Positions 7,301 to 59,262 of a stretch of DNA of 64,000 nt are shown one piece after another (within the stretch, counting starts at the first letter, position 1; each line of letters begins with the position of its first letter). The translations under genes were made by a program, and so were the position numbers. The stretch comes from a virus: IMG/VR virus record IMGVR_UViG_3300014039_000004. One strand, 5' to 3'. The notes beneath the pieces were generated by a model, which was not told where the DNA came from, made no database searches, and saw only the letters and a list, made by a program, of their open reading frames with translations.

Positions 7301-10300
7301 TTTGATATTCAAGATATGATAAAAGCACAACAAGAAGTTCAAGATGAAAGCAATAATACAGCAGATGAAAAAGGTAATGATACAACAGAAGAAGAATCTA
7401 ATACTTCTCAACCTGAACCTAATCCTAATCCTGCTACTACTCCTCAACCTGAACAAGGTGTAGGTTCTACAATAATTCAAAATCCAATTTCAGAGCCTCA
7501 ACCATCACAGCCTATCAACCAATCAACTCAACAACAAAAAATACCTACAGGTCAAAAAACAGGTCAACAGGGCAATAATCAAATAGAAGAAACCTTACCA
7601 CAAACATCAAGCATAGCAAGTGCTAGTAGAATTGAAATAGATAATAATGGTAAAGTTACATGGAATATAAATGGTAATATAGGTATTGTTACAAAAAAAG
7701 CTGAAAATGGTAATGATGTAATAATTATAAATAATGATGAAAGCAAACTAACTGATACTTTCTTTGATAATGTTGGAGAAGTAGATTTAACTAGACCAAT
7801 AAAAGTTGAAACAAATCCTTATATTGATGAAAATAATATACTTCATAAAGGTCATTTAAGCAATACTGATACTCTTGCAACTCAAACAGAAGAAAGTACT
7901 CCTCAAAATAATTCTACTCCACAAACAGCTCCACAAACTACTCCACAAGCAGCTCCACAAATTTCTTCTACGGGGGAGCCAACTACTAATCAAACAAGTT
8001 CTGCTAAAGCTCAATTACCTCAAACTAAAAATGCAGAACCTGTTCCTAATTTAAATGATTCAGAAGATGCTATTACAAATTCAGCAATACAAAGTACTAT
8101 AGTAGCATTTAAAGCTAATCATGATTTAGACTTTGATACATATACTAAAGAACTTATTGATGATTTTGTAGGTAAAGGATATGATAGAGTTGTAGTAGAA
8201 AAAGCTGTTACTCGTGGTGTTAATATTATAAAACGTACGGCTGAAAAACTTAAATCTAAAGCACCTACTACTATGCGTAGTAGTGTTGATGAATATATTA
8301 TTCAATCTTCTATAGTTGAATTATCTAATACAGAAGATTTTGGAACTGAGTTTATACAAGCTGCTAAAAATTTAATTAATCAATATTCTAAAGAAAATGG
8401 TATTAGAATTATTAATAATAAGAAGTATATTAATCTTGAAAATATGCTTCGTTATATTAATGAAACTACATCTGATAGTAATACTGCTAATTTTATCTAT
8501 TATACACTTAAAGAATATCTTAAAACTAACAAAGCTAAAGAAGAATTTATTACTATTGATGAAGATAGTATAGATAATAATGATTTTCTTAATAATGTTG
8601 CTAAATCTTCTGAAGAAAGATATAAAGAAAAATTAGAAGATATTACTATTCAAAGAGTAGATATTAATACTATTACTAAACAACTCGATGAAAATGGTAA
8701 AAAAGAATTTTATGAAGCATTAAACGAACTTCAAAAAGATGAAGAACTTCAAATCGAAATGTATGATGATAAAATTCTTCTTTATGATAGTAAAAAAAGA
8801 CTTGTAGGTAGATTACCAATTCCTTTTATTAATGCTAGTACAGGAGCTTATGAAGTATATAATGATGGTTGGAAATATGATATACTTAGTAATAATGATA
8901 AAATAGATAGTAAACTTAAAAATTTATTTCTTAAATGGATTGATGGTAAAGATAAAGCAAGTAAAGAATTAAATGATATTATTTATGAATTAGCATTTAG
9001 TAATCCTACTAAAGAACGTAAATTCGAGTTATTAGATAAATTTAGTAGTAATAGTGAAATTATTAAAGCTAAAGGACAAGGTCTTACACATAAATCTATA
9101 ACTGATGCTGAATTAGCTAATGGTTTAGTTAAACTTTGGAAATTTGTAAGTTGTTCTAGTACAAATAATAATCTTTTAAATAATATAGCACGTAAAACTA
9201 GTATTGCTTTATGGTTTAAAAAACTTAATAATAGCTATGATGCTATTACTGCTTTAAAAAATGAAGGAGCTGTAAAAATAATAGTTGCTAATATTTCTGA
9301 TGGAGAACTTATTAAAGTTCAAGATAGAGTTACAGATAGTGCTGTTCTTCCATCAGCTTCTAATGCTATTGCTGGAGGAGTTAATTCTGCTGTTCATAAA
9401 ATTGCTATTGGTGATAAATTTAATTTAGGTACTGTAAAAGTATCAGGTAATACTCCTATTAAATTTAATGGTATAGGTAGAACTAATACTTTTGTAATGT
9501 TAAGTAATAGAAGTAATAGACCTACTTTTGTACAAGCATATCCTGTTAAAGTAACCGATACTAATATGAGTGCTGAGGCTAAAGAAATTATTGCTGCAAT
9601 TAAAGGTCATATTGCAAAACTTCTTCATAATTATAGTAATGAAAGTACTGAAGATAATTATAATGCTCTTAAAGAATTTTTAGTTAATGCTTTTTCTGTT
9701 AGAAATGGTAATAATACTTTATTTAATGGTGTAATTGTTACAGTAAATAGTAAATTAGAAAATGAAAGTATAAGTATTGGTATTCCTAATACAAGTTTTG
9801 TATTTCAATTTTATAAGAATAATAAATTTGGAAATCCTTCTTCTTTAGTTAAAATTAAAAAAGATGGTAATTGGGTAAAAGTTCCTTTTAATAGTGAAGA
9901 TTCTATTAATTATATAAATGATATAATTGACAAACTTGTATTTAAATTTAATTTTGGTTATATAGAAGCAGATAATGTTTCTGATATGACTCTTAAAGGT
10001 ATTGCTAAAAGACATAAAGGTAAATTTGAAATTACTGTTGGTGATAAAACTTGGAGTTATAATAGTTTTAATGAATTCATTCTTAATAATAATCTAGTTA
10101 GACTTAATACTAAACCATCAGAAGATGGTAAAAGTAATTTTAAACCTAGAGGTGAAAATCAAAAAGCTAATCAAGTATTTGAAATTAAAATTGAAAAACA
10201 GACTAGCTCCCCTGTAGAAGAATCTACACAATCTAATTCTACTAAACCTGTTAATCAACCAACACAAGTTACTAAATCTATTAATGAACAAGTTAGTGAT

Positions 10301-15400: not shown

Positions 15401-18400
15401 CATATAATTGAAAATGGTAAACTTACAGGTAAAGTATTTCATAGTGATAGATTTGTAATAACTAAACTTGATAAAAATGGAAAAGCTATTACTACTAATT
15501 ATGGTGAGAATATAATAAATGAAGTATTTGATTTTCTCTACGGGGGAGCTAAAGATACTTATATTCATTTTATTAATTCTGCTAAAGGACTTAAAATAAG
15601 TCTTACTGATAGTCAAGAAGATGTTATTCAAAAACATCTTACTTCTTTTATTAATGATTATATTGAAGATACTCAAAATAGATTAAATGAATTCAGTGAT
15701 TTTATTGATAAACGTTTAAATAATGATGATAATGTTACAGAGTTTGCTCTTAATTATTATCTTCAATATATTAATTTTAATGATTTATTTGAAGGAGATA
15801 CTAAATTTTATAAGAATACTCAAACTTTTCTTAAACGAGCTAAAGAAGCTCAAGGTAGTGGAGTACCTTATGGTATAGTTAATTATACAGAAGCTTTAGA
15901 TGCTGAAAAAACTCCAATTACTCATAGACTTAATATTACACCTTTTGTTCATATTAAAGCTGATGGTACAAAAGAAAATGTTTTTGTAGGATTATATAAT
16001 AGATTTACTGGTGTTACTATTAAAAATACTATTAGAACTAGTAAAGAAGCTGCTGTTAAAGGATTAAATGGTGCTAAAAAAGATGGTATTCTTGTTGAAC
16101 AATTAAGTAATATATTTAATAAAGAAGGTTTAAATAAAAAAGATGCTTTATCTACTGCTCGTAATATGATGAGTGGTTATCAAAATACTACAGTAAACGA
16201 TGCTCAATCTTATATTACCTTTGAAGAATGGATTCGTCGTATTACTGCTAGAGGACAATTAGGAAAATATAAATCTCTTATTGATGCTATTTATGATGAA
16301 ACTAAACCTGTTGATGCTAAAACTATAAATGAATTTGTTCAAGTTCAAAAAAATTTTTATTATGACCAACATTATTCTAATGAATTTGGAGTAATGAATC
16401 CTAGACAAATTAAAAATGCTGAATTTGTTCTTGTTCCTAGATTTATTAAAGGTACTCAACTTGAACAAGTTTATAATTTAATGAAAAATAATGATATTGA
16501 CCAATTAAATACAGCAGAAACTTCTAAAGCAGGTAAAGCTAATGTTCTTACTATTTGGGATAATGAAGGTAATATTACTCAAGAAAATATAGATGATTTT
16601 AATGCTAATGTAGAAAGAAGTAAAGAACTTTTTAATTATAATTATCTTTATACTCAACAAGAAACTCCTCAACATGTAAATGATAAAAATAAAGCTGCTA
16701 TTCAGATTATGAAAAAAATAGTAGATAATATTCCACCTACAAGTAGTCTTTATGATGTTAAACAACATTTTAATCATCTTTATGTTGCTAATATTAAATC
16801 TAGTTTTCAAGATTTAATGAAAGAATTATGTTTAGAGGTTGATGAAAAAGGTAATCTTAAATTAGATGAACAAGGTAATATTAAAGGTTTAGATTATGAA
16901 CTTTTCTTTGATAAACTTAAAGAAGAAGTAGCTAGATTAGGACTTGATAGTAATATGATGGATTATGTTACTCTTCTTAAAGATCAAGTTACTGATACTA
17001 GTGGCAATTTTAGTTTACCTATTACTATAATGCCTACTTTTATGAGTATAGTTTCTAGTAAATTAGAAAGTATAGCTCAAAGTGTATTTAATAATAGAGT
17101 TACTAGACAAACGCTTCCTGGTTTTCATGCTGCTCAGATTACTAATATTGGTTTTAAAGCAACTAATGCTCCTATAATTTATAAACTTAATAGCAGTGGT
17201 CAAGGACGTAATTTAACTGATAATATAAATGAAGAAGAGTATAATAAACTTTCTATTAAAAATAGAATGTATTATACTAAAACTAAAGGTAATATAGGAA
17301 CTTCTAAAGAACTTCATTATCATCCTGATGGTGAAAAATATATTGAAGTTCTTCTTCCTAAAAGTAATTTTAGTTTTTATAGAGATGAAAATGGTTATAC
17401 TAAATCAGATGAGGAACTTTTAAAAGAACTTCAAGATGCTAAACTTGATAAAATTATAGGTTATCGTATTCCTACTGAAGGTAAACAGTCAATAGCTATT
17501 ATGAAAGTTGTAGGATTTATTGATGACGCTCTTGGTTCTACTATTGTAGTTCCTGATGATTGGGTATCTCAAACAGGTTCTGACTTTGATATTGATTCTA
17601 TATATGGTATACAATTTAATACTAAATTAGATAAAGTAACTCATAAAATTAAAAAAGTAGATTATATTACTAAACATACAGAACAAGCTTATTTTAATTA
17701 TTTAAGAACTAAAATTGGTCATATTCCTACAAAAGTAGGTAAAGAAATTGAAGAACTTAAAACTAATATTGAACAAAGTAGAAGCGAAGCATTTAATGAA
17801 TTAAGAGATAGAGAAACAGAACTTTATCATTCTTTAAATGATAATACTAGAAATAAAATTAAAGAACTTCAAAATATTAATCGTAATAAATCTACAAAAC
17901 GAGAAAATTATACTGAACAAAATAATAATGTAATAAATGGATTAAATGAATATCTTGCTAATAATAATTTAGATAAAGAAGAAGTTAATAAGATTCAAGA
18001 ATTTATAAATTTAAGAAATCAAATTAATGATTTTATTAATAATTCTACTAAAGAAGACCAAGCACAATTTAATAAAGATAAAGCTGAAATTCTTGCTGAA
18101 CGATTAAGAAAAGTTGAAGAACTAGCTACTAAAAATAATCTTCCTAGTTATACACAATTTAAAACATTATCAACAGAAGAAGCTAATACAACAGAAGCTA
18201 GAAATAATGAACTTCTTCAAAGTATGTTAGATATTCTTTCTGATAATGAATCATTAGAAGAAAATCTTTCTCGTTCTAATTTTGATGATATTATTGATGC
18301 CCGTGACGCTGTTATAGATACTAATGTTAAAAAAATAAGAGATGCTCGTAATCCTTATAATTTCTTAGACCAAGCAGATTATCAAGAAGATGTAATGAGT

Positions 18401-21400
18401 GGTGCTAAACTTAAAGCATTTAGTGTTACTCGTGATACTTTTGTATCTGTTTGTAATACAGTTAGACCTGTTATTTCAGAAGATAATACTATTAATATTC
18501 AATATTATAAAAAAGATGGTTATAGTTTAAAAGCTCTTAAACAATCTTTTGATAATATTCAAGTTTATAATAAAGGTGAAGATAATGAATATTATGTAGT
18601 TAAACATAATACTTTTGGTTGGAGTAAAAATAATAAAAATGTTGCAGGTAAAATTCTTACTGCCTATTCTTCTCAAACTACAGCTCATATTCTTGATGCT
18701 GTAAAAGAAGGTGCTATTCCTAATGTTAATGATTTTACTTTTGCAGTATATAAAACTTTTCCTGATATAGGTTCAGATTATAAAACATGTGTTGCTTTTA
18801 TTATGCAACCTGGCATTAAATATTTAGTAGATGCTTATAATTCTACTAAATCTATTTATAGTAATAATTATGCTAAACCTTTTAATTTAGCTTTTAAAAA
18901 TATAGCTGAACGAATTTTTACTATAAATGGTATAGATTTCAATAAGAAAGATAATATAAATACTATTGTTAAAAAACTTCAAATATTTAATAGTAGATTA
19001 GGCCAATTATTTGATGTAAATGATATTGCAAATTATAATATTAGTATTATAGCAAAAGATGCAGAAAGTTTAAATATATCAAGCAGTAAATATAAAGATA
19101 GACTTAACAATGAAGGTATATTTAAAGGTAGCTCCATTGTAGAAGAAACTAATAAACTTCTTTTTGATTTAGGAGTTCTTCTTCAATATAATAGACTTTC
19201 TAGTTTTGCTAATAGTATTGGAGAATATGCTAGAGTTTGTAATCCAGATAAATTTGGTGCTAAACAAACTATTTTTGCTACAAATGATGTATTTGATAAA
19301 ATTCAAGATATTATATCTAGAGAAAAACAAACTTTATTTGTAGAACCTGAAAAAGATAGTAATGATTCTCGTAAATCATTTTTAGAAGTTATTTACCCTA
19401 ATATTGATAAAGGCCTTGATTCTTATATAACAAGTGATAGTTCTAATAGTAAATATCCTTCTTTAAATGCTTTTCTTAAATATGCTACTGCTGTTAGTAT
19501 TAAAATAAATAGACATTTATTTGAAACACAAAGTAAACATTTTAGAAAGCAAGTTTATAGTCTTGAAAAAGCTTTTACTGATAAAAAACAAATGACTGAA
19601 AAAACTTATAAAGATTTTCAAAATTATATTCTTGCTTATCTTTATAATAATACTAATGCAGTAAGTAAACAATTAGTTTGGAGTAAAGATGGCTTTGATT
19701 ATAAAAATGATACTAATGTAGAAGCAGAACGTAGTAGAATTTATGGATATGGTAAAACAGTTGCTTTAAAAGTTCTAGATGAAGATGGAAATTTAGTTGA
19801 TTTTACTGTAAATGATATTACTAATCCTACTGAAGAAGAAATTAATCAATTTCTTACATTAAGTCCTGCTCAAAAAATTACATGGATTCAAAGTAATTTT
19901 GAAAATAGTAGACTGTTTAGTTATATTAGAACTACTTTATTTAATGAACATCAATATCGTAAAACTAAAGCTGGAGCACAAACTATAGAATTTGTTGACA
20001 GTAATGCTAATATTGAGGCCATGTATGATGCTTTTAATAAAGCATTTTTTAATAGTAATCCTTTAGTAGCAGCTGCTGCTTTTGATATAGTTAAATATGC
20101 CTTTGCAGTAGAAGGTTTTAAAATGAAACGTAATGGTGTTACTAAAATAATTAGTAATAGTGTTTTAAAAATTGATGAAAATCAACCTAATACTAATATT
20201 GTTAAAGAATTAATACGTTCTATTGATACTATTAATGGAAGAAATATTAATATCAATAATATTATTAATAATTTTGTAAGAAGTCATTCTAATATTCAAC
20301 AAATTGCTACTAAAAATGTTGAAAAAATTAGTAAAAATAATTTTCAATTACATAGAGAAAGTTATGGAATAATAGCTCTTGATATTAATAATAAAGAAGA
20401 TTTTGAGTTAGCAGATAAATATAAATTTCTTTATGCTGATAAAACAGAAAAACAGCTTTATGCTAATGAATATGTAAATCTTAGATTTGGTAGAAAAACT
20501 GATTTATATAAAATTAGAATGCAAGGTACTAAACTTATAGCTTATCCTTTAAGTAAACTTGAAGAATCTGAAAATAGTAAATGGTCTGTAAATACTCAAA
20601 ATAATAATGGTTATTATGATGAAGATTTTTATAATGCTATAATTGATGATTGGTTTGGTACTACTGATAATAGTATTTCTTTATCTCAAATTATAGGTAA
20701 ATATAAAGAAACTATAAACGAACATAAATTTATAAATAAAAATGCTATTGCTAGGCAATTAACTGCTAAACCTTTTGATATTAATGATAAAAATACTAAT
20801 TATACAGGAGGTTTTGAAGATGTGATAAAGAAAGTTACTAATTATTTTGAAAAAAATCCTAATGGAAAACTTTATTTACGTAGTGGAGCATTAGATAAAT
20901 TTATTACTCATGTTGGTATTGCAAATGGTAGTACTCAAACTATTAATGGTAAAGAATATGATATTCAAAAAATTGATTTTAAAAAATATAATAGAGCTTA
21001 TATTTCAGGTAAAGAAGCATTAAGTAGAGATATTAAAGAAAAAGATGCTCAAATAATTGACATTATTAATCGTGCTAGACAAACAGGTTATACTGTTAAT
21101 GATGTATTTGCAATTACTCCTCATATAGATCAAAATATTGAAATTGATGAAACTAATGAGGATGACAATGTAGATACTAATGAAATTTTAAATTCTAGTG
21201 TAACAGAACTTGGAGTAGGTTCTATGAAAGCTATGCGTCGTAGAGCTTTATCTGAAAATGATATAGAAGCTAATAAAGCTCTTAATAGATTAAGAGATAA
21301 AGCTATTACTGCAACAGAAAATTCTGTTAAACTTAATCTTAATGAAGTAGTACCTGTAACAGCAGAATATGTTAAAGGTACTGTTGATAAGATTCTTAAT

Positions 21401-24400: not shown

Positions 24401-26245
24401 AATCTACAAAGAGATGCTACGATGTCTACAGATGAAGAAAATAAATATGTTACACGAAAAGATACAAGACTTCAAGAACAATATGTTAATTGGCTTCGTA
24501 GATTAGTATATAATCAATGGAAAAAACCAAATAATCATCTTACTCGTGTAGCTAATTTAGCACAAAGTCTTACATCTGCTAAATTTATGATGTTAAATTT
24601 TACAGGTGGAATTGCTAATGTAACTGCTGGTGAAACTCAAATTCTTGGTGAAGCTTTTGCTAAAGAATATTTTGGTAGTAAACTTTGGGCTAAAGGCGTT
24701 GCTATTTGGAACAAAGGTCTTCCTAGTTTTATAGCTGATATGAATAGTGATAAAGCTTCATCTTTACAAAGTGCTTTAGTTAAATTTTTTAATGTTGTTG
24801 AATTTGATGAATATACAGGAGTTGTTCATGTAGATAATTTAAATAAAAAGCTTGAAAAAGCTAGAGACTTTGCATATAGTCCTCAATCTAGTGGTGAACA
24901 TTTCATGCAAAATGGTGCTATGTTTAGTATGATGCTTAGTCATAGATTGTGTATTAATAATAATAATAAAGCAACAGGTAGACTTTCATATACAGTTAAA
25001 AATGAAGCTGAATTTATGAGAGATGCTGAAGAAAAAGCATTACTTAGTATTCTAACTACTGATAAACTTAAAGAACAATATCGTAAATATAAAGAGATTG
25101 AACTTAAAGACCCTAATAGTAAAAAAGAATATGCTTGGTTTAGAAAAAATATAGTTACTGATTTTGTTAATACTCTTGATAATGAATATAAAACTAAATT
25201 TATAGATAAACGTAAAGAATATCAAAAACAAGCTAAAGAAGAATTTAATAATGATGAACTTCATCCTACATTGTATAGTCAATTTGAATTAACATCTGAT
25301 GGTCAATTAGGTTTTAAAAATAATAGTATATTATCACAAATGGATGAAGATGCTTATCAACTTCTTGGTAGATTTAAAGATAGAGTAATATCAGTTAATA
25401 AAAAAATTCATGGTGTGTATGATAGACTTGGTGCTGCTAAATGGGAATCATATTGGTGGGGAGGTCTTGTAATGCAATATCATAAACATATTTATCCTGG
25501 TATTATGAAACGTTATCGTAGACAAGGTTATTTTAATGAAGAAAGAGGTACTATAGAAAAAGGTTGTTATGCAGCTATTAAAGATTTTCTAGCTCTTCCT
25601 CTTAGAAAACAATCTTTTATTAAAAAACTTCAAGCTGAAAACGATATTAATGATGATAATATTCAAGTAGCTCAAGGTATTCAAAATATTATTCAAAATT
25701 ATGTTGATTTTGCTTTAAATATTAGAACTAATTGGAATGTTATACCTGAAACTGATAGAGCTAATATTAAAAGAGCTTTAGGAGATATGTTAGGTGTTGC
25801 ATCAGCTATTTGTTTAGCCATAGGACTTCAAGTTGTTGCAGGAGGTGATGATAAAGAACATAGTATTCTTTATAATCTTTTTATGTATGAAGCTGATAGA
25901 CTTGCTTCTGAATCTGCAATGTATACTATTCCAGGTCTTATGTCTGAAGGTGCTAAACTTTGGTCAAGTCCTGTCGCAGTAGAAAGTGGATTAAGTGACA
26001 TATTTAATAGTATGGGACTTATTGCTCAATATATGATACAAGGTGATGATTTTGACCCTTATTATAAAACAGGTCTTTATGCTGGAGAAAATAAACTTGA
26101 AGTTAAACTTAAACGTCAAATTCCTATGTATCATGGAATAGATATGGTTAATAGACTTCAACGTAGTAATAAATATTATAAACTTGATAAAAATATGCTT
26201 AGTATTATACCTGTTAAAGATATTGCTGATTATATTAGAAATTAG
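12416..26245 (+). CDS. giant virion-associated protein, candidate virion-packaged RNA polymerase (vRNAP) fused with additional domains
   Basis: Uninterrupted 4609-aa ORF. DFDID (a DxDxD metal-binding signature of two-barrel RNAPs) lies at nt 17582-17596. Its position after the cargo-type genes matches crAss-like phages. Several hydrophobic segments occur in the last ~700 aa. Confidence 0.8.
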   Translation: MSCPIQIKENSVVNSLKSIFGESNDLVTLIAETTDGNKFNYDFQKWAKKHYNHELDFNTIDKVDETVKAIRDYHNYLHPDVNYTATIQNDATNVAHFGYTSVTAREKGKQIVVDKLLNIKHQLEHDYHEKPEGSKKVYFADAATSVIENVVVERVMNRTNISQDDVYDILDADNCFEQLDNILGTSTEQDKNVLALYKEMINNREEYFEQVFNDSRLGDIRFEKNDNFEDDNQAVEIAEQEADDDIDSESVNTDEDTNGTERDNSINQLNNKDGQYNNFMTHVGMSVRSYIGSLRKCNTTKMINNDYDFDTSNELGIAEAMDINEVMTVLYSNIDFTNVSDMIQSIELIANNIPGMEGLIQMSDYLKTNEDFAYEVYRTFAKIAISKLETISDGNNIKSILSNRRADKLTSLRFEYFNSVKSTSILLDDLNSREIYNSLKREINDYAQAADILNQAEDNKDIIDEADKELLYQQSGIKLDEIINELANQFKRYYPTIESSFIANYIKNNNDGDIVANMNNLSTILKNTIDASYKTQLNYYSQQAELRKAYAHNKALDARKADGEFVKASDYIDLTLYYNNDYVDSSTQAAAFGLANELVKYSPVKVELNSRNVHGNLSSDIINNSMITNVINTLKSTIALENFGKYKSQSRQYDFSNIMIEHKDEDGNIINYGLFTLDEESQDFIPTSYARELIKARLFSGASDMTSSKNVLYSEMSKGDYIATSFINYFTTERNHNLTDKDPNIEFANYFMRIPSDAPKNFIIVAPRYSTKETTVGANNGLFVITNKIEANREINKRINELPTLDEDYVSDDSLCIKRSLNQAISNITANNIGNIVIPNKAFINEKNSKKGDTVTINCIYTNADGIETQYVLIGTLGQDNGKLILEQPTFQGFAGTTKSSELVRALEKHYQKELIKEGVIKREINTNHPVYKQLHNVFVQEITDAATALNHIFKCGPDGRVLVDDKGNPIFREGFGDNPETIRKMYDVYHSNGKHIIENGKLTGKVFHSDRFVITKLDKNGKAITTNYGENIINEVFDFLYGGAKDTYIHFINSAKGLKISLTDSQEDVIQKHLTSFINDYIEDTQNRLNEFSDFIDKRLNNDDNVTEFALNYYLQYINFNDLFEGDTKFYKNTQTFLKRAKEAQGSGVPYGIVNYTEALDAEKTPITHRLNITPFVHIKADGTKENVFVGLYNRFTGVTIKNTIRTSKEAAVKGLNGAKKDGILVEQLSNIFNKEGLNKKDALSTARNMMSGYQNTTVNDAQSYITFEEWIRRITARGQLGKYKSLIDAIYDETKPVDAKTINEFVQVQKNFYYDQHYSNEFGVMNPRQIKNAEFVLVPRFIKGTQLEQVYNLMKNNDIDQLNTAETSKAGKANVLTIWDNEGNITQENIDDFNANVERSKELFNYNYLYTQQETPQHVNDKNKAAIQIMKKIVDNIPPTSSLYDVKQHFNHLYVANIKSSFQDLMKELCLEVDEKGNLKLDEQGNIKGLDYELFFDKLKEEVARLGLDSNMMDYVTLLKDQVTDTSGNFSLPITIMPTFMSIVSSKLESIAQSVFNNRVTRQTLPGFHAAQITNIGFKATNAPIIYKLNSSGQGRNLTDNINEEEYNKLSIKNRMYYTKTKGNIGTSKELHYHPDGEKYIEVLLPKSNFSFYRDENGYTKSDEELLKELQDAKLDKIIGYRIPTEGKQSIAIMKVVGFIDDALGSTIVVPDDWVSQTGSDFDIDSIYGIQFNTKLDKVTHKIKKVDYITKHTEQAYFNYLRTKIGHIPTKVGKEIEELKTNIEQSRSEAFNELRDRETELYHSLNDNTRNKIKELQNINRNKSTKRENYTEQNNNVINGLNEYLANNNLDKEEVNKIQEFINLRNQINDFINNSTKEDQAQFNKDKAEILAERLRKVEELATKNNLPSYTQFKTLSTEEANTTEARNNELLQSMLDILSDNESLEENLSRSNFDDIIDARDAVIDTNVKKIRDARNPYNFLDQADYQEDVMSGAKLKAFSVTRDTFVSVCNTVRPVISEDNTINIQYYKKDGYSLKALKQSFDNIQVYNKGEDNEYYVVKHNTFGWSKNNKNVAGKILTAYSSQTTAHILDAVKEGAIPNVNDFTFAVYKTFPDIGSDYKTCVAFIMQPGIKYLVDAYNSTKSIYSNNYAKPFNLAFKNIAERIFTINGIDFNKKDNINTIVKKLQIFNSRLGQLFDVNDIANYNISIIAKDAESLNISSSKYKDRLNNEGIFKGSSIVEETNKLLFDLGVLLQYNRLSSFANSIGEYARVCNPDKFGAKQTIFATNDVFDKIQDIISREKQTLFVEPEKDSNDSRKSFLEVIYPNIDKGLDSYITSDSSNSKYPSLNAFLKYATAVSIKINRHLFETQSKHFRKQVYSLEKAFTDKKQMTEKTYKDFQNYILAYLYNNTNAVSKQLVWSKDGFDYKNDTNVEAERSRIYGYGKTVALKVLDEDGNLVDFTVNDITNPTEEEINQFLTLSPAQKITWIQSNFENSRLFSYIRTTLFNEHQYRKTKAGAQTIEFVDSNANIEAMYDAFNKAFFNSNPLVAAAAFDIVKYAFAVEGFKMKRNGVTKIISNSVLKIDENQPNTNIVKELIRSIDTINGRNININNIINNFVRSHSNIQQIATKNVEKISKNNFQLHRESYGIIALDINNKEDFELADKYKFLYADKTEKQLYANEYVNLRFGRKTDLYKIRMQGTKLIAYPLSKLEESENSKWSVNTQNNNGYYDEDFYNAIIDDWFGTTDNSISLSQIIGKYKETINEHKFINKNAIARQLTAKPFDINDKNTNYTGGFEDVIKKVTNYFEKNPNGKLYLRSGALDKFITHVGIANGSTQTINGKEYDIQKIDFKKYNRAYISGKEALSRDIKEKDAQIIDIINRARQTGYTVNDVFAITPHIDQNIEIDETNEDDNVDTNEILNSSVTELGVGSMKAMRRRALSENDIEANKALNRLRDKAITATENSVKLNLNEVVPVTAEYVKGTVDKILNDLQYFIMDDESKYHSIAEEYTINRIRNNKDERKRFLKTLLDARAFVRNYRIINDLDISSEDESLRANLNKIKQSIDSLQNSTIINQAEEIFAKDYLAKLSDNPLIQSDIISILDGYHSAGAFDAWVNDLQETSNPLLQIITKEVMGDIRSNELLAHKRVDDFKSALNKIKEEAKKAGVSIDYKHIIDDYGKFIQDYNQAFVDKITELRTNIANAKIEYGDGSLEHLKAKFEYDKFKLNHINQRLKDDYYQTKLNLEKYMIDHFGSIYSEYNKLISKRNQILSHSVNGILDESYQDELRKIKKDIDNLTNRFFYNDVTKEFEEKYSFQDPANPYKDETRIIRSIESATALRNYLRDMKELRDTYFTKDSKFGFDEELEKNLDIISNYEQRDSKGRPTVPISELIKHEDYVKAKSWIEQNARYVITPEVQKYINDAFKVFRENKKGGTVLTSIAKIREAYDNQGVIDGTKFTIEDIEKLRTETLARYNIKEGQPYSDRLLISNAPVNGDIFKSAFYSKMKSNGIPNQEYLKYVNEINSILIKYYEQGTKILHTEEISIEDLDKLDKLYDTIENLKKTVDSTNGKAIKNYIESNVDFITNDELYNEQKGLAALKGTRYLIKWQQVFERVEERINGYKVVPNRKVFGYAVPRGYKPDGTGDNSMVDKKKTDAFHVIQNYTTKTKTQYYFDKYKEMKAKGKEEFNTWFNKNHVYNPYSHNYEPLDCWTKLDINPISDDGKFETIGEWIPNFNQTQSRPKDGKDNKGKPDGSIDVLNHDYKENTTLENNFKPNGRKLDDYIYDGSKDELKDTTNYINTTSLNKYERDVRDLFKKILYQYANTAAAKNYLNQGFMASRRKEAEVSKEMLAKEAAKFIGWVNNATGKEAWYEDVDYAKDKTIDMPLMYLLKSKDSINIDYTKPKQEENESIEDYTKRLQEYTNKRKADEATNLEIHKKLLDTNWEDVMEDYITKAMHFNAIQDNKYMLFYAKNMLDKLRVYVKNEGFNNLQRDATMSTDEENKYVTRKDTRLQEQYVNWLRRLVYNQWKKPNNHLTRVANLAQSLTSAKFMMLNFTGGIANVTAGETQILGEAFAKEYFGSKLWAKGVAIWNKGLPSFIADMNSDKASSLQSALVKFFNVVEFDEYTGVVHVDNLNKKLEKARDFAYSPQSSGEHFMQNGAMFSMMLSHRLCINNNNKATGRLSYTVKNEAEFMRDAEEKALLSILTTDKLKEQYRKYKEIELKDPNSKKEYAWFRKNIVTDFVNTLDNEYKTKFIDKRKEYQKQAKEEFNNDELHPTLYSQFELTSDGQLGFKNNSILSQMDEDAYQLLGRFKDRVISVNKKIHGVYDRLGAAKWESYWWGGLVMQYHKHIYPGIMKRYRRQGYFNEERGTIEKGCYAAIKDFLALPLRKQSFIKKLQAENDINDDNIQVAQGIQNIIQNYVDFALNIRTNWNVIPETDRANIKRALGDMLGVASAICLAIGLQVVAGGDDKEHSILYNLFMYEADRLASESAMYTIPGLMSEGAKLWSSPVAVESGLSDIFNSMGLIAQYMIQGDDFDPYYKTGLYAGENKLEVKLKRQIPMYHGIDMVNRLQRSNKYYKLDKNMLSIIPVKDIADYIRN
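15534..15549 (+). repeat. G-run motif copy M3 (forward, 1 nt shorter)
   Basis: ttctctacgggggagc followed by taaag, inside CDS 12416..26245, where it is read as LYGGAK. Confidence 0.85.
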
Positions 26246-26261
26246 TTCCCCTGTAGAGAAG
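26245..26261 (-). repeat. G-run motif copy M4 (reverse, variant)
   Basis: gttcccctgtagagaag. It starts at the last base of the stop codon of the 4609-aa ORF. Confidence 0.8.
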
Positions 26262-28314: not shown

Positions 28315-28331
28315 TTCTTCTACAGGGGAGG
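28315..28331 (+). repeat. G-run motif copy M5 (forward)
   Basis: ttcttctacaggggagg, intergenic, 66 nt upstream of the dut ATG as read on the - strand. Confidence 0.9.
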
Positions 28332-28378
28332 TAGTCAAGATAAAGAAAACTTATATCAAGACTACCTATAATATAAAA

Positions 28379-29446
28379 CTAAGCACTAGCTAAAGAATAA
28401 GCATCTATTAATGCTTTATTCATAGCTCTATTAGCTCCCCCGTAAAGAAGTGAATCTACTCGTTTTTCACCACTCATATCTACTACATTAGAATAATAAC
28501 CTGTTATAGCATTATATGCTCCCCAAGCAGTATTTCTAATATCATGTTGACCTATTCCATCATGATAATAAGAAAAAATCTTGTTAATAGTATTTATTTT
28601 ACGAGAACTAATATTAGTTACTTCTTTAATTGTATAGTCATTTAATAATAGTCTTTCATATCCTCGTTTACTATCATAAGCATTTAAATCTTCAATTTCT
28701 TTGTTAGTAAGTTGTGTATTAGCAATATATTTCATTACAGCTTCATCACTCATACCAATACATAAAAGACTATTATATAATTGTTCTGTATTTTTAGCAT
28801 ATTCACAGGCTATTCTTAATATTTGAGCACCACTTTCAAGTTTTTCTTTAGCTCCCACAGTATGCTTAATTCTGATATAAGCATCAGCTCCTTTTAAAGC
28901 ACTATTAAGCATGTTTGTACAAATAACTCTTATAGGAGTAAACAAAATATTAATAGATGTACTTCCATCATGACTACTACCAAATACAAGATAGTTATCT
29001 ATTTTATCTTTACCTACAATAGTTTCTGTTGGAAGTTTAGCACTAATAAATATTTTATGTCCATGACCAAAATATCCAGCAGTATCCCAAACAGCTTTAT
29101 CTTTTCCAATAGCATCATTAAAGAAAGCAAAAGCATCTCTATTTTGAACTACTTCATATTTATCTTTAACAATACCTAAAGGAATATTATAATCTGTTCT
29201 ATATGTAGCATAAGCATTATCACAATCTCGATAAATATTACCTTTATAGGCAAAACTATCTTTATTATTAACATCATTATTACCTTTTATATTAAAAGGC
29301 ATTTTAGCTACAAGATTACACTTTTGAACATTAAAATTAAGACCTGCTGCTTCAATAGCTTCTTGTGCAGTAGTACATTTAGAAACATCTTTTCCTATAC
29401 CACTTCTCCAAGGAAGTCCTTTAACATTATACTCCATATTGTTCAA
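28379..29446 (-). CDS. DUF932-like phage/plasmid protein
   Basis: 355 aa. The segment FGSSHDGSTSINILFTPIRVICTNML matches my memory of the DUF932/TIGR03299 family core. The C-terminus contains motif copy M6. Confidence 0.5.
   Translation of the reverse strand: MNNMEYNVKGLPWRSGIGKDVSKCTTAQEAIEAAGLNFNVQKCNLVAKMPFNIKGNNDVNNKDSFAYKGNIYRDCDNAYATYRTDYNIPLGIVKDKYEVVQNRDAFAFFNDAIGKDKAVWDTAGYFGHGHKIFISAKLPTETIVGKDKIDNYLVFGSSHDGSTSINILFTPIRVICTNMLNSALKGADAYIRIKHTVGAKEKLESGAQILRIACEYAKNTEQLYNSLLCIGMSDEAVMKYIANTQLTNKEIEDLNAYDSKRGYERLLLNDYTIKEVTNISSRKINTINKIFSYYHDGIGQHDIRNTAWGAYNAITGYYSNVVDMSGEKRVDSLLYGGANRAMNKALIDAYSLASA
28434..28450 (-). repeat. G-run motif copy M6 (reverse, variant)
   Basis: gctcccccgtaaagaag, inside CDS 28379..29446, where it is read as LYGGAN. 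Confidence 0.85.
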
Positions 29447-33164: not shown

Positions 33165-33181
33165 TTCTTCTACAGGGGAGC
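33165..33181 (+). repeat. G-run motif copy M7 (forward)
   Basis: ttcttctacaggggagc. It fills most of the 24-nt spacer and abuts the ATG at 33164. Confidence 0.9.
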
Positions 33182-33188
33182 TAATATA

Positions 33189-35709: not shown

Positions 35710-36853
35710 ATCTTATAGTTTCTTTAATAAATTGATTAATTTCATTAATAGAATACTTATCGTGTAAATCAGCAAAATCTTTACAATCGTAATTATAAAG
35801 ACCTAATTCACCACGAGTAATAAATATGTATGGTATATTATAAGTTTCTTTTAAATATTTAGCACCATTTCTACCTGTATTATCAAAATCAAGTAAACTT
35901 AATATTATACCATTATCTTTAAGTTTATTTTTAAGCCATTGATATTCATTATCTTTAAGTTTATAATTTTCACTAGGAAGATTGATAATACCAATATTTA
36001 GTTTAGTATTAGCTCCCCCGTAGAAGAATATTTGACTTAAATGACTACCAATACTTAGTCTATCTTTTGTACTTTTTGTTATAAGAATATAATCATAATT
36101 ATCAAGTTCTAAATTAAGAAGTCCTTCTAAAACATTTGCATTAGTTACAAATTTAAGTTCAAGACTTCTATTACGTAAAGGAAAATATAGTTTAATAAGA
36201 TAAATACCTGTTCTAGTTTGACCTAACATATAAGCATAACACGGGTCTTTAGCTTTATAATAATATTTTGGTTTACTATTAACACTTCTATCTATATAAT
36301 ATTGGTCTACAGGTATTACAAAATGAGTATTAAGATAATTAAGAGAAATGTTCCATCTGTTCCATATTCTTTTATCATCTTTATTCCAACTACGAGGTAC
36401 TATTTCAATAATAGGCCTACGTTGTTTTGCTATTTTAATAGCACCTTTAATTAGTTCTGTTACATTTTCATCTGTTTCTTTATTATCAATAATATTACTA
36501 AAAGTATGAGCTATATGTTTTAGAATAAAATAAAAATCTTGTTTATTATTAGGTTCTATTTTTCTACCATAAGCTAATGATAATACATAAGCTACAGTAC
36601 CATAAACATCTTCAAAGAAACCAAAACCTCCAAAATCTCTAACTTTTAATCTACCTTTAGCATTATACTGAATACCCATACTTTTATTAGTATCATCATC
36701 CCTAAATACAGAATTAATAAGATGATTATTTTCAATACAATCTTTTACTATTTCAATAGGAATATCAAGATACTTACTTACTATTAATTCTTGTGAAACT
36801 TTAGATTCAATATAATCTTTAGTAAGATTTGTAGTATAAGGATTACGCTTCAT
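35639..36853 (-). CDS. Toprim-domain protein, putative DNA primase
   Basis: LLDFDNTGRNGAKYL (Toprim DxD block) preceded by ILITKSTKD. I prefer the internal ATG at 36853 (MKRNPY...); the track start at 36913 is also possible. It contains motif copy M8. Confidence 0.5.
   Translation of the reverse strand: MKRNPYTTNLTKDYIESKVSQELIVSKYLDIPIEIVKDCIENNHLINSVFRDDDTNKSMGIQYNAKGRLKVRDFGGFGFFEDVYGTVAYVLSLAYGRKIEPNNKQDFYFILKHIAHTFSNIIDNKETDENVTELIKGAIKIAKQRRPIIEIVPRSWNKDDKRIWNRWNISLNYLNTHFVIPVDQYYIDRSVNSKPKYYYKAKDPCYAYMLGQTRTGIYLIKLYFPLRNRSLELKFVTNANVLEGLLNLELDNYDYILITKSTKDRLSIGSHLSQIFFYGGANTKLNIGIINLPSENYKLKDNEYQWLKNKLKDNGIILSLLDFDNTGRNGAKYLKETYNIPYIFITRGELGLYNYDCKDFADLHDKYSINEINQFIKETIRYVELKYKTGISDTNAYYEGLPFT
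36012..36028 (-). repeat. G-run motif copy M8 (reverse)
   Basis: gctcccccgtagaagaa, inside the primase-like CDS, where it is read as FYGGAN. Confidence 0.9.
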
Positions 36854-39858: not shown

Positions 39859-41268
39859 TTAATCTGCAACACTAAAATCAAAATTATTTTCACTAAAATT
39901 ATCTTTTTCTACTATTACATGATTTTTATCTATATCTTTATTATCTAACAATTTTTCTTCTGTTGTGCTTTTACAATATATAGTATATAATACTATTTTA
40001 TTATTTAAATACCTTATATTAGATAAACGATACAAATAATTTTTTATATCTCCACATTGAGGAGAAGTTATAATAACAATATCTACATTGCCTCTAAGTT
40101 TTTTATCAGGTGCATTACCTGTACTAAGTACATTAATAACACCTTTATTAAACAATAATTCATTATTAGTTCGTTGAGCTTGTGCTTTTAATATTTTAGG
40201 TTCACCTTTGTGTTCTCCATTTTTATAAGTTAAAAGTTGACCATTAATATCTACAGCATAAGCAGGTTCAATTTTATCATGATAATTACCACATATTATT
40301 TTTCCTTCTTGTTTATTAATATAATCTGTAACATTATTTGCAAAATCACTTCTTTTATTTATAATAAGAATATTTTTATTTTTATTTTCTTTAACTATAT
40401 TATAAATACTTCCAAGTTTAAGTTTATAATCTGATAAAAGAATTGCTCTATTATGAATAATTTCATAAGTTTTAGAAGCTCTTTCTTTTATATTACTAGG
40501 ATTATAAAGATTATCAAGTTGCATATTAAATGAACTAGACATATCAAGATGTTCATTCCATCCATTTTCTTTAGCAAGTTGATTACAAATTTGAATTGCA
40601 CTTATATTAAGTTTTGTATTACCTATTCTGGCTTCATCAATTTTATCAAATCCACCAAAAATAGCAATACTAGTAGAAATATAATTATTATAATATTCAA
40701 GAAGTTTAGCATCTTCAGAATTTGGTTCAATAGTTACACCAATTCTAGTTTCTTCTACGGGGGTGCTCAATCGAACTAACTCTAATTCATTAGCTTTAAA
40801 TTCATCTAAAAGTGGACAAAGTTTATAAAGTTCAATATTATCTTCTTTATTTTTAAGAAATTTATTAAGAATAGTAAGTTTAAATTTACTACTTTCATAA
40901 AAACATCTTAAATGTTTAAAAGGACTAGTAATATGATAAGCAATAAATAAAGTAGGAATACTAACAGGATGTTTAATAATAAAATCTTGTGTTACAATAC
41001 TAATATGTTTACTTTTAAATAAATCTTTAAATTTATTATTAATATCTTCATCTTCTTGATGAGTTAAAAACTCCATAATACTAATTCTTTCATCAAAACT
41101 AAAAGTACATATTAGAGTTTTACAACTATTAGAATTTTGATATATTCTATTTAATATACCAGATATAAGATATTTATCATTAATAGTATTTGGTATAATA
41201 GCACTTCCTACACCTTTATTTTGTCTCCATCGTTCGATAGCTTTATCAAATAAATTATGTAAGTTCAT
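39859..41268 (-). CDS. hypothetical protein, possible SF2 helicase fold with degenerate Walker A
   Basis: 469 aa. The C-terminal part (VINVLSTGNAPDKKLRGNVDIVIITSP) looks like helicase motifs V/VI, but no GKT is seen. It contains motif copy M9. Confidence 0.35.
   Translation of the reverse strand: MNLHNLFDKAIERWRQNKGVGSAIIPNTINDKYLISGILNRIYQNSNSCKTLICTFSFDERISIMEFLTHQEDEDINNKFKDLFKSKHISIVTQDFIIKHPVSIPTLFIAYHITSPFKHLRCFYESSKFKLTILNKFLKNKEDNIELYKLCPLLDEFKANELELVRLSTPVEETRIGVTIEPNSEDAKLLEYYNNYISTSIAIFGGFDKIDEARIGNTKLNISAIQICNQLAKENGWNEHLDMSSSFNMQLDNLYNPSNIKERASKTYEIIHNRAILLSDYKLKLGSIYNIVKENKNKNILIINKRSDFANNVTDYINKQEGKIICGNYHDKIEPAYAVDINGQLLTYKNGEHKGEPKILKAQAQRTNNELLFNKGVINVLSTGNAPDKKLRGNVDIVIITSPQCGDIKNYLYRLSNIRYLNNKIVLYTIYCKSTTEEKLLDNKDIDKNHVIVEKDNFSENNFDFSVAD
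40750..40766 (+). repeat. G-run motif copy M9 (forward, variant)
   Basis: ttcttctacgggggtgc, inside CDS 39859..41268, where it is read as STPVEE. Confidence 0.85.
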
Positions 41269-43596: not shown

Positions 43597-44141
43597 AGTC
43601 TAAGAATATTATATTGTGTAAAATCATTATAAGTAATACTATTATACCATTTTCTAAGATAAGTTTTAAATACTTCAAATTTATTATTATCAGTATATTT
43701 AACAAGAGGAGAATAATTAATAGAATAAATTCTACCATTATGGGAAATACAAAGATTATTAAGATTATCTTTTATATCACAATTAAGAAATCTTCTACCT
43801 GCATCACCTAATAATAATATATGTTTAAATTGATATTTATTTATATCATTATTAAAATGATATAAACATCTATTATAAATATCATTATTAAGTTCACAAG
43901 CAATAGTTTCATTACAGCGAATAAAAGGTAAAATATATAAGTCTGTTACCTCCCCCGTAGAAGAAATAACAGACTTAATAATCTCTACTTGATTACTATA
44001 TCCAATATTACCTTTTTTATAAGCATTATAATCTACATTAGGTATTACAATACATTTACCTAAATAAGGATTACCAATACCTTGTAAATTATAATGCTTA
44101 GTATTAAAAAGTCTCATTGGACATTCTTTACAAACATCCAT
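43593..44141 (-). CDS. uracil-DNA glycosylase family 4-like protein (tentative)
   Basis: N-terminal CKECPMRLF ... GIGNPYLGKCIVIPNVD resembles the UDG4 start. There is a 4-nt overlap with polB. It contains motif copy M10. Confidence 0.45.
   Translation of the reverse strand: MDVCKECPMRLFNTKHYNLQGIGNPYLGKCIVIPNVDYNAYKKGNIGYSNQVEIIKSVISSTGEVTDLYILPFIRCNETIACELNNDIYNRCLYHFNNDINKYQFKHILLLGDAGRRFLNCDIKDNLNNLCISHNGRIYSINYSPLVKYTDNNKFEVFKTYLRKWYNSITYNDFTQYNILRL
43949..43965 (-). repeat. G-run motif copy M10 (reverse)
   Basis: cctcccccgtagaagaa, inside CDS 43593..44141, where it is read as SSTGE. It sits in the loop of the 8-bp inverted repeat gtctgtta (43941-43948) / taacagac (43967-43974). Confidence 0.9.
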
Positions 44142-48315: not shown

Positions 48316-48332
48316 ATCTTCTACAGGGGAGC
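48316..48332 (+). repeat. G-run motif copy M11 (forward)
   Basis: atcttctacaggggagc, intergenic. It abuts the ATG at 48315 of a small - strand ORF. Confidence 0.9.
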
Positions 48333-48349
48333 TATTTTGAACTATTTAT

Positions 48350-48817: not shown

Positions 48818-48857
48818 AATATTTTTATTTTTAATAGTTTTATTGTTAGATTGATGA

Positions 48858-48874
48858 ACTCCCCTGTAGAAGAA
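48858..48874 (-). repeat. G-run motif copy M12 (reverse)
   Basis: actcccctgtagaagaa, intergenic, 40 nt upstream of the ATG at 48817. Confidence 0.9.
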
Positions 48875-52954: not shown

Positions 52955-52955
52955 A

Positions 52956-53015: not shown

Positions 53016-53020
53016 CAAGA

Positions 53021-54278: not shown

Positions 54279-54487
54279 GTTTATAAAACTTATTATTAGT
54301 ATTTGTTCCATTATTATCAATTTTATTATTTATAAAAGCTCCAAGTTCTATATCTTCAAGTTTATAAAGTTCTACAAATTTTAAAATACTATCAATATGT
54401 CTTAAATTATATCAAATACTACCAATAAGTTTATTAAGTTTATCTTTTCTATTATTTTTAATTCTATTAGTTTGATTAGATTTATTA

Positions 54488-54504
54488 GCTCCCCCGTAGA
54501 AGAA
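54488..54504 (-). repeat. G-run motif copy M13 (reverse)
   Basis: gctcccccgtagaagaa, in the centre of the large non-coding region. Confidence 0.9.
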
Positions 54505-55711: not shown

Positions 55712-55728
55712 ATCTTCTACGGGGGAGC
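55712..55728 (+). repeat. G-run motif copy M14 (forward)
   Basis: atcttctacgggggagc followed by tagtc, in the intergenic spacer 55697-55783. Confidence 0.9.
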
Positions 55729-55753
55729 TAGTCAGTTAAATCTTACTAGTCAT

Positions 55754-58717: not shown

Positions 58718-58988
58718 ATATTTATTAGTTGTACTATTATTATCAATTATAATATTAGGTATACAAATAATGATTATACTTGATTTAGGAACACATATTA
58801 AATATAATCCTACTATAAATCCTAAAGATTATAATTATACGATTGATAGTTTGAAAAAAGAGAATGTTGATATTGTAATAGATATTAATAAATTAGATAG
58901 TATTAAAGATGAAGAAATGGATAAAGCTACAAAAGTTGATAATGATAGTGCTCTTAGGATGTTCTATAAATTGCTTGGCAAGGAATAA
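58698..58988 (+). CDS. small N-terminally anchored membrane protein (holin or i-spanin-like candidate)
   Basis: 96 aa with a single TM (YLLVVLLLSIIILGIQIMIIL) and a charged C-terminal half. Confidence 0.5.
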   Translation: MKMNWYKYLLVVLLLSIIILGIQIMIILDLGTHIKYNPTINPKDYNYTIDSLKKENVDIVIDINKLDSIKDEEMDKATKVDNDSALRMFYKLLGKE

Positions 58989-59262
58989 TGTAGATTTTTC
59001 TACGGGGGAGCGAGATTCAACTTATATATCTTATAATGATTTACGTATTGTAAATAGTAAACTTATTGAACTTGATTATACTAAACAAATTAATAATAAA
59101 CTTAAAACTATAATTTATAATGATAGTATTGTTATTAATGAATATAAAGTAATGAATAATAGTTTAGTTAAATCAAATAATAAACTTAAACGTAAATCTA
59201 AAATTGGTTTTATTACTGCTCTTGTTGCTATTATTGGACTTAGTATATCATTAATAAAATAG
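58909..59262 (+). CDS. u-spanin-like protein (lipoprotein signal plus C-terminal TM)
   Basis: 117 aa. It has the lipobox LLGC (Cys18) and the C-terminal TM IGFITALVAIIGLSISLI. Its start overlaps the previous ORF by 80 nt in another frame. It contains motif copy M15. Confidence 0.45.
   Translation: MKKWIKLQKLIMIVLLGCSINCLARNNVDFSTGERDSTYISYNDLRIVNSKLIELDYTKQINNKLKTIIYNDSIVINEYKVMNNSLVKSNNKLKRKSKIGFITALVAIIGLSISLIK
58995..59011 (+). repeat. G-run motif copy M15 (forward, variant)
   Basis: tttttctacgggggagc, inside ORF 58909..59262, where it is read as FSTGE. Confidence 0.85.

Follow-up and report, generated by a model that had tools for sequence, protein, structure and literature searches.

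The closest described counterparts of the element reported here are the promoters of the T7 group, Chi and the FtsK-orienting polar sequences (KOPS), the single-strand initiation (ssi) sites of RSF1010, the uptake signal sequences (USS) of Haemophilus and DNA uptake sequences (DUS) of Neisseria, the replication terminators (Ter) and the repetitive extragenic palindromic (REP) sequences. The element is a strand-polar motif of about 23 nt, dispersed along a stretch of 64,000 nt of DNA (IMG/VR record IMGVR_UViG_3300014039_000004; the whole stretch is called the window below) from a crAss-like phage that belongs to Intestiviridae (subfamily Obtuvirinae). Literature, exact-sequence and topic full-text searches found no description of it. 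Its anatomy is unlike that of T7 promoters, Chi/KOPS, USS/DUS, REP, Ter or ssi sites. Its upkeep by selection, even within genes, and its spacing on each strand throughout Intestiviridae point to a dispersed cis-signal that appears undescribed.

T7-group promoters (23 nt, TAATACGACTCACTATA/GGGAGA) resemble the motif in being phage-specific, asymmetric sequences of about 23 nt, present in tens per genome, some of them overlapping coding sequence. Both have a common centre with lineage-specific flanks, and in both a G-rich run comes after a pyrimidine/purine junction. T7 promoters, however, lie upstream of the genes that they drive, all point with them and cluster by need, whereas the motif, a phage-specific asymmetric sequence of similar length (20-23 nt), is 40% antisense, mostly intragenic and evenly spaced. 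The crAss polymerase, a two-barrel enzyme, is unlike that of T7.

Chi, KOPS and other polar architecture-imparting oligomers are likewise G-rich and polar, occur in coding and noncoding DNA and are spaced by a few kb; Chi and KOPS themselves are read by a translocating enzyme. They are 5-8 nt long, host-specific and strongly skewed between replichores, whereas the motif is 20-24 nt long, specific to a phage family, interleaved on the two strands and weakly skewed. Polarity and over-representation are thus common to Chi and the motif, but a short, host-set sequence shared by host DNA is not. The RSF1010 sites ssiA and ssiB, read by the RepB' primase, and the G4-type complementary-strand origins are long strand-specific signals with an element-encoded reader and an inverted pair at the origin. 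They occur once or twice per replicon as DNA hairpins, whereas the motif is hairpin-less and has 10-35 copies per genome; the layout alone fits an ssi-type priming signal.

USS and DUS are also non-palindromic, lie on both strands, in several frames and in spacers, and form inverted pairs past stop codons, but they are bacterial, number thousands of copies of about 10-12 nt and are read by the competence machinery; nothing observed for the motif speaks for a role in uptake or packaging. Ter sites (Tus-Ter, RTP-Ter) are asymmetric, orientation-dependent sequences of about 23 bp, with known tight inverted pairs. They fall into two opposed groups, which act as a trap, whereas the motif forms two series interleaved round the genome; this and the lack of any cognate binding protein among the proteins found led us to reject membership of that class. 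REP sequences and the bacterial interspersed mosaic elements (BIME) share with the motif an alternating orientation and a place at the 3' ends of genes. REP units are palindromic and strictly extragenic; the motif is neither, with no DNA structure and half or more of its copies in open reading frames (ORFs), and was not assigned to this class.

Copies of the motif in the window

The 21-mer TTCTTCTACRGGGGAGCTAAT was taken as reference and tested against 100 dinucleotide-preserving shuffles of the window. With up to three mismatches it gave 12 matches in the window and 0 in the 100 shuffles, and the core TCTACRGGGGA with up to one mismatch recovered all 15 copies listed below as strong. A weight matrix built from these copies scored the 15 sites at 26.8-41.3, the next best sites reaching 15.9 and 12.9; given this gap, no further strong copies are left in the window to disturb the orientation pattern. 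In total, 15 strong copies were found against 0 expected, together with one decayed copy. The shuffles rule out a chance origin, for the window and for prototypical crAssphage (Carjivirus communis), and bear out the non-random recurrence claimed in an earlier reading of the window made from its letters only (the sequence-only reading).

The motif is asymmetric and strand-polar. Its heart, Y-T-A-Y-GGGG, lies where a pyrimidine run meets a purine run, and conservation, which covers about 23 nt with none detected further out, reaches equally far up- and downstream of this junction. In unconstrained spacers the full form is ACATTTCTTCTACGGGGGAGCTA.

The nearest annotated relative of the window is the uncultured phage cr271_1 (65-78% nucleotide identity, colinear). 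The window consists of three blocks of genes:

1-26245, plus strand: closing part of the structural block, with two giant ORFs related to RNA polymerase
27.3-54 kb, minus strand: replication genes (SF1 helicase, uracil-DNA glycosylase, PolB, SNF2 ATPase, RecT, SSB, primase, ligase)
55-64 kb, plus strand: beginning of the late block, with the exonuclease, terminase and portal genes

Copies are assigned to the L series if they point the way the late and RNA polymerase genes are read, and to the E series if they point the way the early replication genes are read. Orthologous positions refer to cr271_1 and to ctcc615, a phage of another Obtuvirinae genus. The copies are as follows:

7963..7983, plus strand: copy TTCTTCTACGGGGGAGCCAAC, sense in the giant ORF 4316-12349, frame STGE; L series; cr271_1 orthologue at 47769
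10202..10222, minus strand: copy TTCTTCTACAGGGGAGCTAGT, antisense in the giant ORF 4316-12349, frame SSPVEE; E series; cr271_1 orthologue at 50247
15533..15553, plus strand: sense within the giant RNA polymerase ORF 12416-26245, frame LYGGAK; L series; cr271_1 orthologue at 55546
19127..19147, minus strand: decayed copy TTCTTCTACAATGGAGCTA with broken G-run, 6708 nt into the RNA polymerase ORF; weight-matrix score 15.9
26241..26261, minus strand: overlaps the stop codon of the RNA polymerase ORF; E series; orthologues at cr271_1 66208 and ctcc615 12759
28315..28335, plus strand: intergenic, 43 nt beyond the stop of a DUF932 gene (28379-29446, minus strand)
28430..28450, minus strand: copy CTTCTTTACGGGGGAGCTAAT, at the 3' end of the DUF932 gene, frame LYGGAN
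33165..33185, plus strand: perfect copy occupying the 24 nt that separate genes 33189-33617 and 32733-33164 (both minus strand); orthologues at cr271_1 74325 and ctcc615 22561
36008..36028, minus strand: perfect copy, sense in the primase gene, frame FYGGAN; orthologous codons in four genomes
40750..40770, plus strand: antisense in the SNF2 ATPase gene, frame STPVEE; orthologous codons even in prototypical crAssphage
43945..43965, minus strand: sense in the uracil-DNA glycosylase gene, frame SSTGE; kept in three Obtuvirinae genomes
48316..48336, plus strand: intergenic, 13 nt beyond the stop of gene 48350-48817; decayed cr271_1 orthologue at 90829
48854..48874, minus strand: intergenic, 36 nt upstream of gene 48350-48817; copy and gene inserted relative to cr271_1
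54484..54504, minus strand: perfect copy in the long noncoding region where two divergent gene blocks meet
55712..55732, plus strand: intergenic, 15 nt beyond the stop of ORF 55184-55696 and 51 nt ahead of the next ATG; cr271_1 orthologue at 3524
58995..59015, plus strand: copy TTTTTCTACGGGGGAGCGAGA, 6 nt beyond the stop of ORF 58698-58988 and inside ORF 58909-59262, frame STGE; cr271_1 orthologue at 7009

The plus-strand starts agree with those of the sequence-only reading. The minus-strand copies that it had noticed exist, but each starts 4 nt below the position that it gave. Its three named registers, YGGA (15533, 28430 and 36008), STGE (7963, 43945 and 58995) and SPVEE (10202 and 40750), were confirmed. 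It had also described runs of G or C as nearly absent elsewhere in the window, which is overstated: 15 of the 33 runs of at least four belong to the motif, as do nine of the 11 runs of five.

The decayed copy is matched in cr271_1 by a strong copy, 59052 (minus strand), at 6711 nt of the orthologous RNA polymerase ORF. At 26241-26261 the pyrimidine arm of the motif is the left arm of an intrinsic-terminator-like hairpin (26255-26288). The copies at 28315 and 28430 form a tight inverted pair, 115 nt apart, with an equivalent pair in ctcc615 (16525/16624), and a 9-nt inverted remnant, GTAGAAGAT, lies at 55760, near copy 55712. No copy is present in prototypical crAssphage at the position of the uracil-DNA glycosylase copy 43945. 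An insertion at 48337-48937, where cr271_1 has only 94 nt, contains gene 48350-48817, one motif copy and a hairpin. Proteins of 20 window ORFs were scanned against Pfam, and those of ten of these also against PHROGs; gene 48350-48817 (155 aa) had no family match.

Conservation across Intestiviridae

All three subfamilies of Intestiviridae carry the motif, with lineage-specific flanks round the common heart YTAYGGGG:

cr271_1 (Obtuvirinae): 18 strong copies
ctcc615 (Obtuvirinae, another genus): about 22 copies
Prototypical crAssphage (Carjivirus communis, Crudevirinae): 32-33 copies of TCCATCCTCYACGGGGRGTMWAMC, 0 expected
'Rudgehvirus jaberico' (Crudevirinae, cultured): 10 strict and 26-27 broad-core copies
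crAss002 (Churivirinae, cultured): about 35 copies of CTCCTYTAYGGGGGAA

A survey of IMG/VR covered about 130 loci, 52 of them anchored on SNF2 and about 80 on the portal gene. The antisense copy in SNF2 was found in 50 of 52 loci and the sense copy in primase in 42 of 48; copies flanking these two sites were similarly kept in the SNF2-anchored loci, and the portal-anchored loci showed the same motif in the late region. In jaberico the SNF2 copy persists only as a TTTAC variant, at 71722. The SNF2 helicase gene of this phage (69903-72242) is interrupted, in an intron-like manner, by a GIY-YIG endonuclease gene.

The sequence-only reading had placed the conservation at the level of nucleotides rather than protein, and had named a lack of conservation in relatives as what would count most against it. 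Both points were settled in its favour. Twelve copies are positionally orthologous between the window and cr271_1, and over these the 18-nt core is 84% identical, the flanks 62%. Among five genomes, all five stop-free frames are used, in addition to spacers: sense copies are translated as STGE/STGG, LYGG or LLRG/PLRG, and antisense copies as PVEE/PVED or PRRG/PRGG. Codon alignment of the SNF2 ATPase placed the motif at orthologous codons in four genomes, including prototypical crAssphage, at 32% amino-acid identity. In the SNF2 and primase alignments synonymous sites were invariant within the motif and variable outside it, and the rare codons CCC, GGG and ACG were kept at orthologous positions. 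The primase of ctcc615 has changed from YGG to YRG (G to R), yet the nucleotide motif is intact. The use of five frames and spacers and this replacement rule out a protein motif or codon bias. Since the motif occurs in several frames and in spacers and its synonymous sites are frozen, selection therefore acts on the nucleotides themselves; as judged from these alignments, the motif is held by strong purifying selection at the DNA level across Intestiviridae.

A search for the exact 19-mer, using one genome per bacterial or archaeal species, found it only on three contigs of 79-97 kb in metagenome-assembled genomes, which are evidently phage genomes; it was not found in bacterial chromosomes of this set. 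Of two phages that share the host Bacteroides cellulosilyticus, jaberico (Intestiviridae) has the motif and no excess of the 9-mer CTTCTGGAG, and 'Kehishuvirus tikkala' (Steigviridae) has zero YACGGGG. The type of motif thus tracks the phage family and not the host, which makes a shared host factor, such as the Chi of AddAB, an unlikely reader, and a motif derived from the host was rejected on the same grounds. The reader protein is most likely phage-encoded, to which the differences in flanks between lineages also point. The Chi sequence of Bacteroides AddAB is itself still unknown (PMC2887965).

The 9-mer CTTCTGGAG (CTTCT/GGAG) is a different polar sequence, found in Steigviridae: crAss001 has 27 copies against 0.36 expected, and tikkala 12 copies in its first 50 kb. 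Both strands are used, with no two plus-strand copies next to each other; copies on the minus strand are evenly spaced in crAss001 (coefficient of variation, CV, 0.46; p = 0.0007). It has the theme of a pyrimidine run followed by GGAG in common with the Intestiviridae motif. From this theme and layout, the phenomenon may exceed one family.

Two interleaved polar series

The orientation string + - + - + - + - + - + - - + + that the sequence-only reading had reported for the window was confirmed, with 12 switches in 14 steps (permutation p = 0.012). Alternation recurs in relatives: 18 of 22 steps are switches in ctcc615 (permutation p = 0.003), 22 of 32 in prototypical crAssphage (p = 0.04) and 28 of 35 in crAss002 (p = 0.0006). 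The pattern is therefore real, but is better read as two interleaved even series than as a property of pairs.

For spacing tests the copies were split by absolute orientation. The late-sense series circles the whole genome very evenly, crossing the oppositely oriented replication block. Its mean spacing is 5.4 kb in prototypical crAssphage (n = 18, CV 0.31, p < 2e-5), 6.9 kb in ctcc615 (n = 13, CV 0.25, p < 2e-5) and 7.7 kb in cr271_1 (n = 12, CV 0.41, p = 0.001). The evenness remains after conditioning on the observed minimum distance (p = 0.002 each in prototypical crAssphage and ctcc615). A minimum-distance effect, as from the instability of repeats, fails to account for it alone; the length of the gaps therefore has an upper bound, and the spacing does not reflect repeat avoidance only. 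The opposite series, too, is evener than chance; its copies crowd the replication block and the polymerase genes and, in some genomes, become sparser across the structural genes. In crAss002 each series is complete, with even spacing (p = 0.0002 and 0.005). Each strand bears a copy every 5-8 kb regardless of local gene orientation. With two interleaved even series of similar period, alternation follows automatically, as does the window's spacing of about 7.6 kb between copies on one strand.

Some same-strand gaps of the window are nearly identical: 7570 nt (7963/15533, plus), 7585 and 7566 nt (33165/40750/48316, plus) and 7578 nt (28430/36008, minus). The orthologous gaps of cr271_1 differ (7777, 8481 and 8030 nt), and the near-identity over 7566-7585 nt is either coincidence or a lineage-specific constraint.

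At short range the copies are inverted. Neighbours less than 1 kb apart were in opposite orientation in 15 of 15 cases in four genomes, in which the nearest neighbours of the same orientation lay 2.08 kb apart; in IMG/VR, gaps below 2 kb made up 3 of 97 same-orientation gaps as against 109 of 246 opposite-orientation gaps. Tight inverted pairs, 20-540 nt apart, occur in every genome, and a tally of positions placed convergent partners in Obtuvirinae at 20-950 nt or 2.2-3.9 kb, plus two longer gaps. Polarity of the replichore type was rejected, the skew being weak (20 copies of prototypical crAssphage point away from the block junction and 12 do not, by tally). A link of the R position or of crAssphage subtypes to orientation was rejected, being weak in the window and absent from relatives by a tally made with no statistical test.

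Possible functions and meaning for crAss-like phages

Even spacing and independence of gene orientation speak for a process travelling along DNA (replication, recombination or translocation) and not for ordinary promoters or terminators. Our preferred reading, offered tentatively and from sequence comparison, is that the motif may be a polar DNA signal read by a phage replication or recombination enzyme, probably as a strand-specific start or loading site. A phage-encoded enzyme would read the motif on DNA and work directionally along the genome; each copy would prime or re-start synthesis along its arrow, and either strand could be started every few kilobases, even inside long genes. Template-directed RNA synthesis starts at sequences of this type, a pyrimidine-to-purine junction and then a G-run, as in T7 (TATA/GGGAGA), and the RSF1010 ssi sites are the nearest precedent for a long priming signal.

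At the gene-block junction of prototypical crAssphage and of jaberico, about 100 bp of AT-rich spacer separates the two copies of a divergent pair, which would be the bidirectional-origin form of such a signal. A second divergent pair lies near the other RepL gene of prototypical crAssphage. By the two RepL genes of this phage are near-duplicate modules, at 28050-28220 and 95720-95910, with the order GC-rich tail, motif (minus), AT-rich spacer of about 100 bp, motif (plus) and GC-rich tail with AGCGNAGCG repeats; from their sequence, these modules look like replication origins. An origin predicted by OriFinder lies directly upstream of a repL gene (PMC10983915). Taken together, the divergent pairs by the RepL genes and the block junction are suggestive of a link between motif and replication. 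The motif was not taken for a RepL binding site, no RepL being found near copies among the window ORFs scanned.

In a more speculative form of the start-site reading, a 'milestone code', the copies, set every 5-8 kb on each strand in genes and spacers alike, would each be a point where a phage polymerase (primase or giant RNA polymerase) begins synthesis.

Several observations weigh against a start or loading site in replication. Known primases mostly use 3-nt sites, so that a 23-nt priming signal would be unusual, and the motif lacks the DNA hairpin of the ssi type. The reader protein was not found in the protein scans of the window ORFs. One of the two series thins in the structural genes of cr271_1, ctcc615 and prototypical crAssphage, which is unexpected for a pure replication role. 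Another crAss-like phage, phi14:2, has no comparable motif; an apparent one, ACCTTCTTC, is a codon effect. Intergenic copies of both orientations lie nearer the upstream stop than the downstream start in roughly 10 of 12 cases compared by eye, and this, with the copy that overlaps a terminator hairpin, gives a hint of a link to transcription.

Such a link is the substance of the strongest rival, which we think unlikely but deserving of weight: the motif would be the promoter or start site of the giant virion RNA polymerase, starting at the G-run on both strands. Sense copies would drive expression, and antisense copies may give RNA for temporal shut-off or pull the DNA into the cell. The likeness to T7-group promoters argues for it, as a phage-specific asymmetric sequence of 20-24 nt with lineage-specific flanks round a common centre, whose -1 pyrimidine and +1 G-run resemble TATA/GGGAGA. 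So do the excess of sense over antisense copies in the late region (125 vs 57) and the position of intergenic sense copies 36-145 nt upstream of start codons. No promoter of a crAss virion polymerase is known, and literature searches turned up no 5'-end data for any phage of Intestiviridae. A study of phi14:2 found sigma-70-like middle promoters and, upstream of the early transcripts, no motif common to them. However, about 40% of copies are antisense to local genes (11 of 25 coding copies in prototypical crAssphage), half or more lie inside ORFs, even in the middle of 14-kb genes, spacing is even regardless of gene orientation whereas T7 promoters cluster, and conservation extends equally downstream and upstream of the junction.

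The start of the early block also tells against a promoter, having no motif copy in cr271_1 and ctcc615. A second repeat family, CTCATCTCAATARTRCAAG, lies there instead, with 4 copies upstream of the first early-block genes of the window (52877-52951 and 53881-53949, both minus strand), the last copy in each cluster extending to CTCAATAATRCAAGTTTTGGCAATA. This repeat, CTCATCTCAATARTRCAAG...TTTTGGCAATA, sits where an early-block promoter is expected, is kept in cr271_1 near 2040-2100 and is a candidate early promoter or operator. The motif was rejected as early-block promoter, and an ordinary mRNA promoter or terminator, one of the functions suggested by the sequence-only reading, is poorly supported.

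A polar barrier or control site for a DNA-moving enzyme appears rather improbable. It could be Chi-like, halting degradation by a helicase-nuclease or phage exonuclease, or Ter-like, with a bound protein that would halt forks or polymerases arriving from one side. Polar sites needed both ways everywhere would naturally yield two interleaved even series, and paired Ter sites, as in R6K and Bacillus subtilis, offer a parallel to the tight inverted pairs. Among the proteins of these phages are RecT, a PD-(D/E)XK exonuclease, an SF1 helicase and a Gam-like inhibitor. Copies 5-8 kb apart are closer together than the roughly 14 kb measured as the processivity of Bacteroides fragilis AddAB (PMC2887965). 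But Chi is 5-8 nt long and host-specific, whereas here at least 20 nt are conserved and the type goes with the phage family; barriers interleaved in the two orientations would stop every fork, and no Tus- or RTP-like protein was found.

Action at the RNA level is highly improbable. Sense and antisense copies would pair in one transcript, for processing or to stabilise 3' ends, or the sense RNA would act through a c(UACG)g hairpin. Such pairing would suit the tight inverted pairs and the intergenic copies just beyond stop codons, and phage T4 has intergenic CUUCGG hairpins. Motif DNA has no self-structure or hairpin; the sense RNA forms a weak G.U-rich hairpin (-4.5 to -7.1 kcal/mol) and the antisense RNA none. 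Among 480 distinct copies, informative stem positions paired no more than by chance, C.A mismatches being as frequent as expected. The loop C is replaced by T in half of the crAss002 copies, and no copy matched an Rfam family. A structured RNA element, whether an Rfam family or a hairpin with a UNCG-type loop, was rejected on these grounds. The pairing of transcript ends, proposed by the sequence-only reading, is unsupported as well: most partners lie 2-10 kb apart in essential ORFs, and pairing leaves unexplained why the sequence itself, and not just complementarity, is kept across genera.

That the copies are recombination sites or module boundaries, as the sequence-only reading had also put forward, or mobile-element ends (invertible segments, cassettes or miniature inverted-repeat transposable elements, MITEs) is hardly credible. 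Inverted pairs do flank segments, and gene 48350-48817 with one copy is inserted next to another copy. But the window and cr271_1 are colinear with no inversions, no pattern of cassette-like presence and absence was seen, and single copies sit at orthologous codons of essential genes (SNF2, primase) in about 50 genomes; ORFs would be wrecked if segments between copies were inverted or deleted. The cr271_1 site that lacks the extra gene retains its copy, which speaks against MITE or transposon ends, and no recombinase, which site-specific inversion (inverton, hix/gix) would call for, was found in the scanned ORFs.

Other features of the window were noted. A RAGATH-1 hammerhead ribozyme lies at 50745-50840 (minus strand), in a noncoding stretch of the leftward early block (63.4 bits vs a gathering score of 56.3), and a Prevotella-2 RNA gave a weak, sub-threshold match at 50355-50450. 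Genes for tRNA Asn, Thr, Glu and Met stand at the convergent junction (26571-26926, plus strand) and those for tRNA Lys and Leu in the early block (46714-46967, minus strand), with a weaker tRNA-like match at 49666-49730 (minus strand). An island of higher G+C at 52000-54000 (0.36 vs about 0.25 elsewhere) holds gene 53333-53816, then a hairpin; upstream of this gene, low-complexity repeats (GAGAGT, AAAGTAAAA) occupy 54050-54250 of the noncoding junction.

CrAss-like phages are the most abundant human gut viruses, and the motif offers a handle on their replication and on the targeting of the giant polymerase. It constrains synonymous sites, which matters for analyses of evolutionary rate, and it is a compact sequence signature for recognising Intestiviridae contigs. 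Its function is directly testable in cultured phages, where the motif can serve as bait for the reader protein, the positions of nascent RNA or DNA ends can be compared with it and its synonymous sites can be recoded. If the 'milestone code' is true, replication or genome-wide transcription would be organised by sequence-specific starts, and not by one origin with non-specific priming; together with the same layout of CTTCTGGAG in the Steigviridae crAss001 and tikkala, it would be a general feature of the order.

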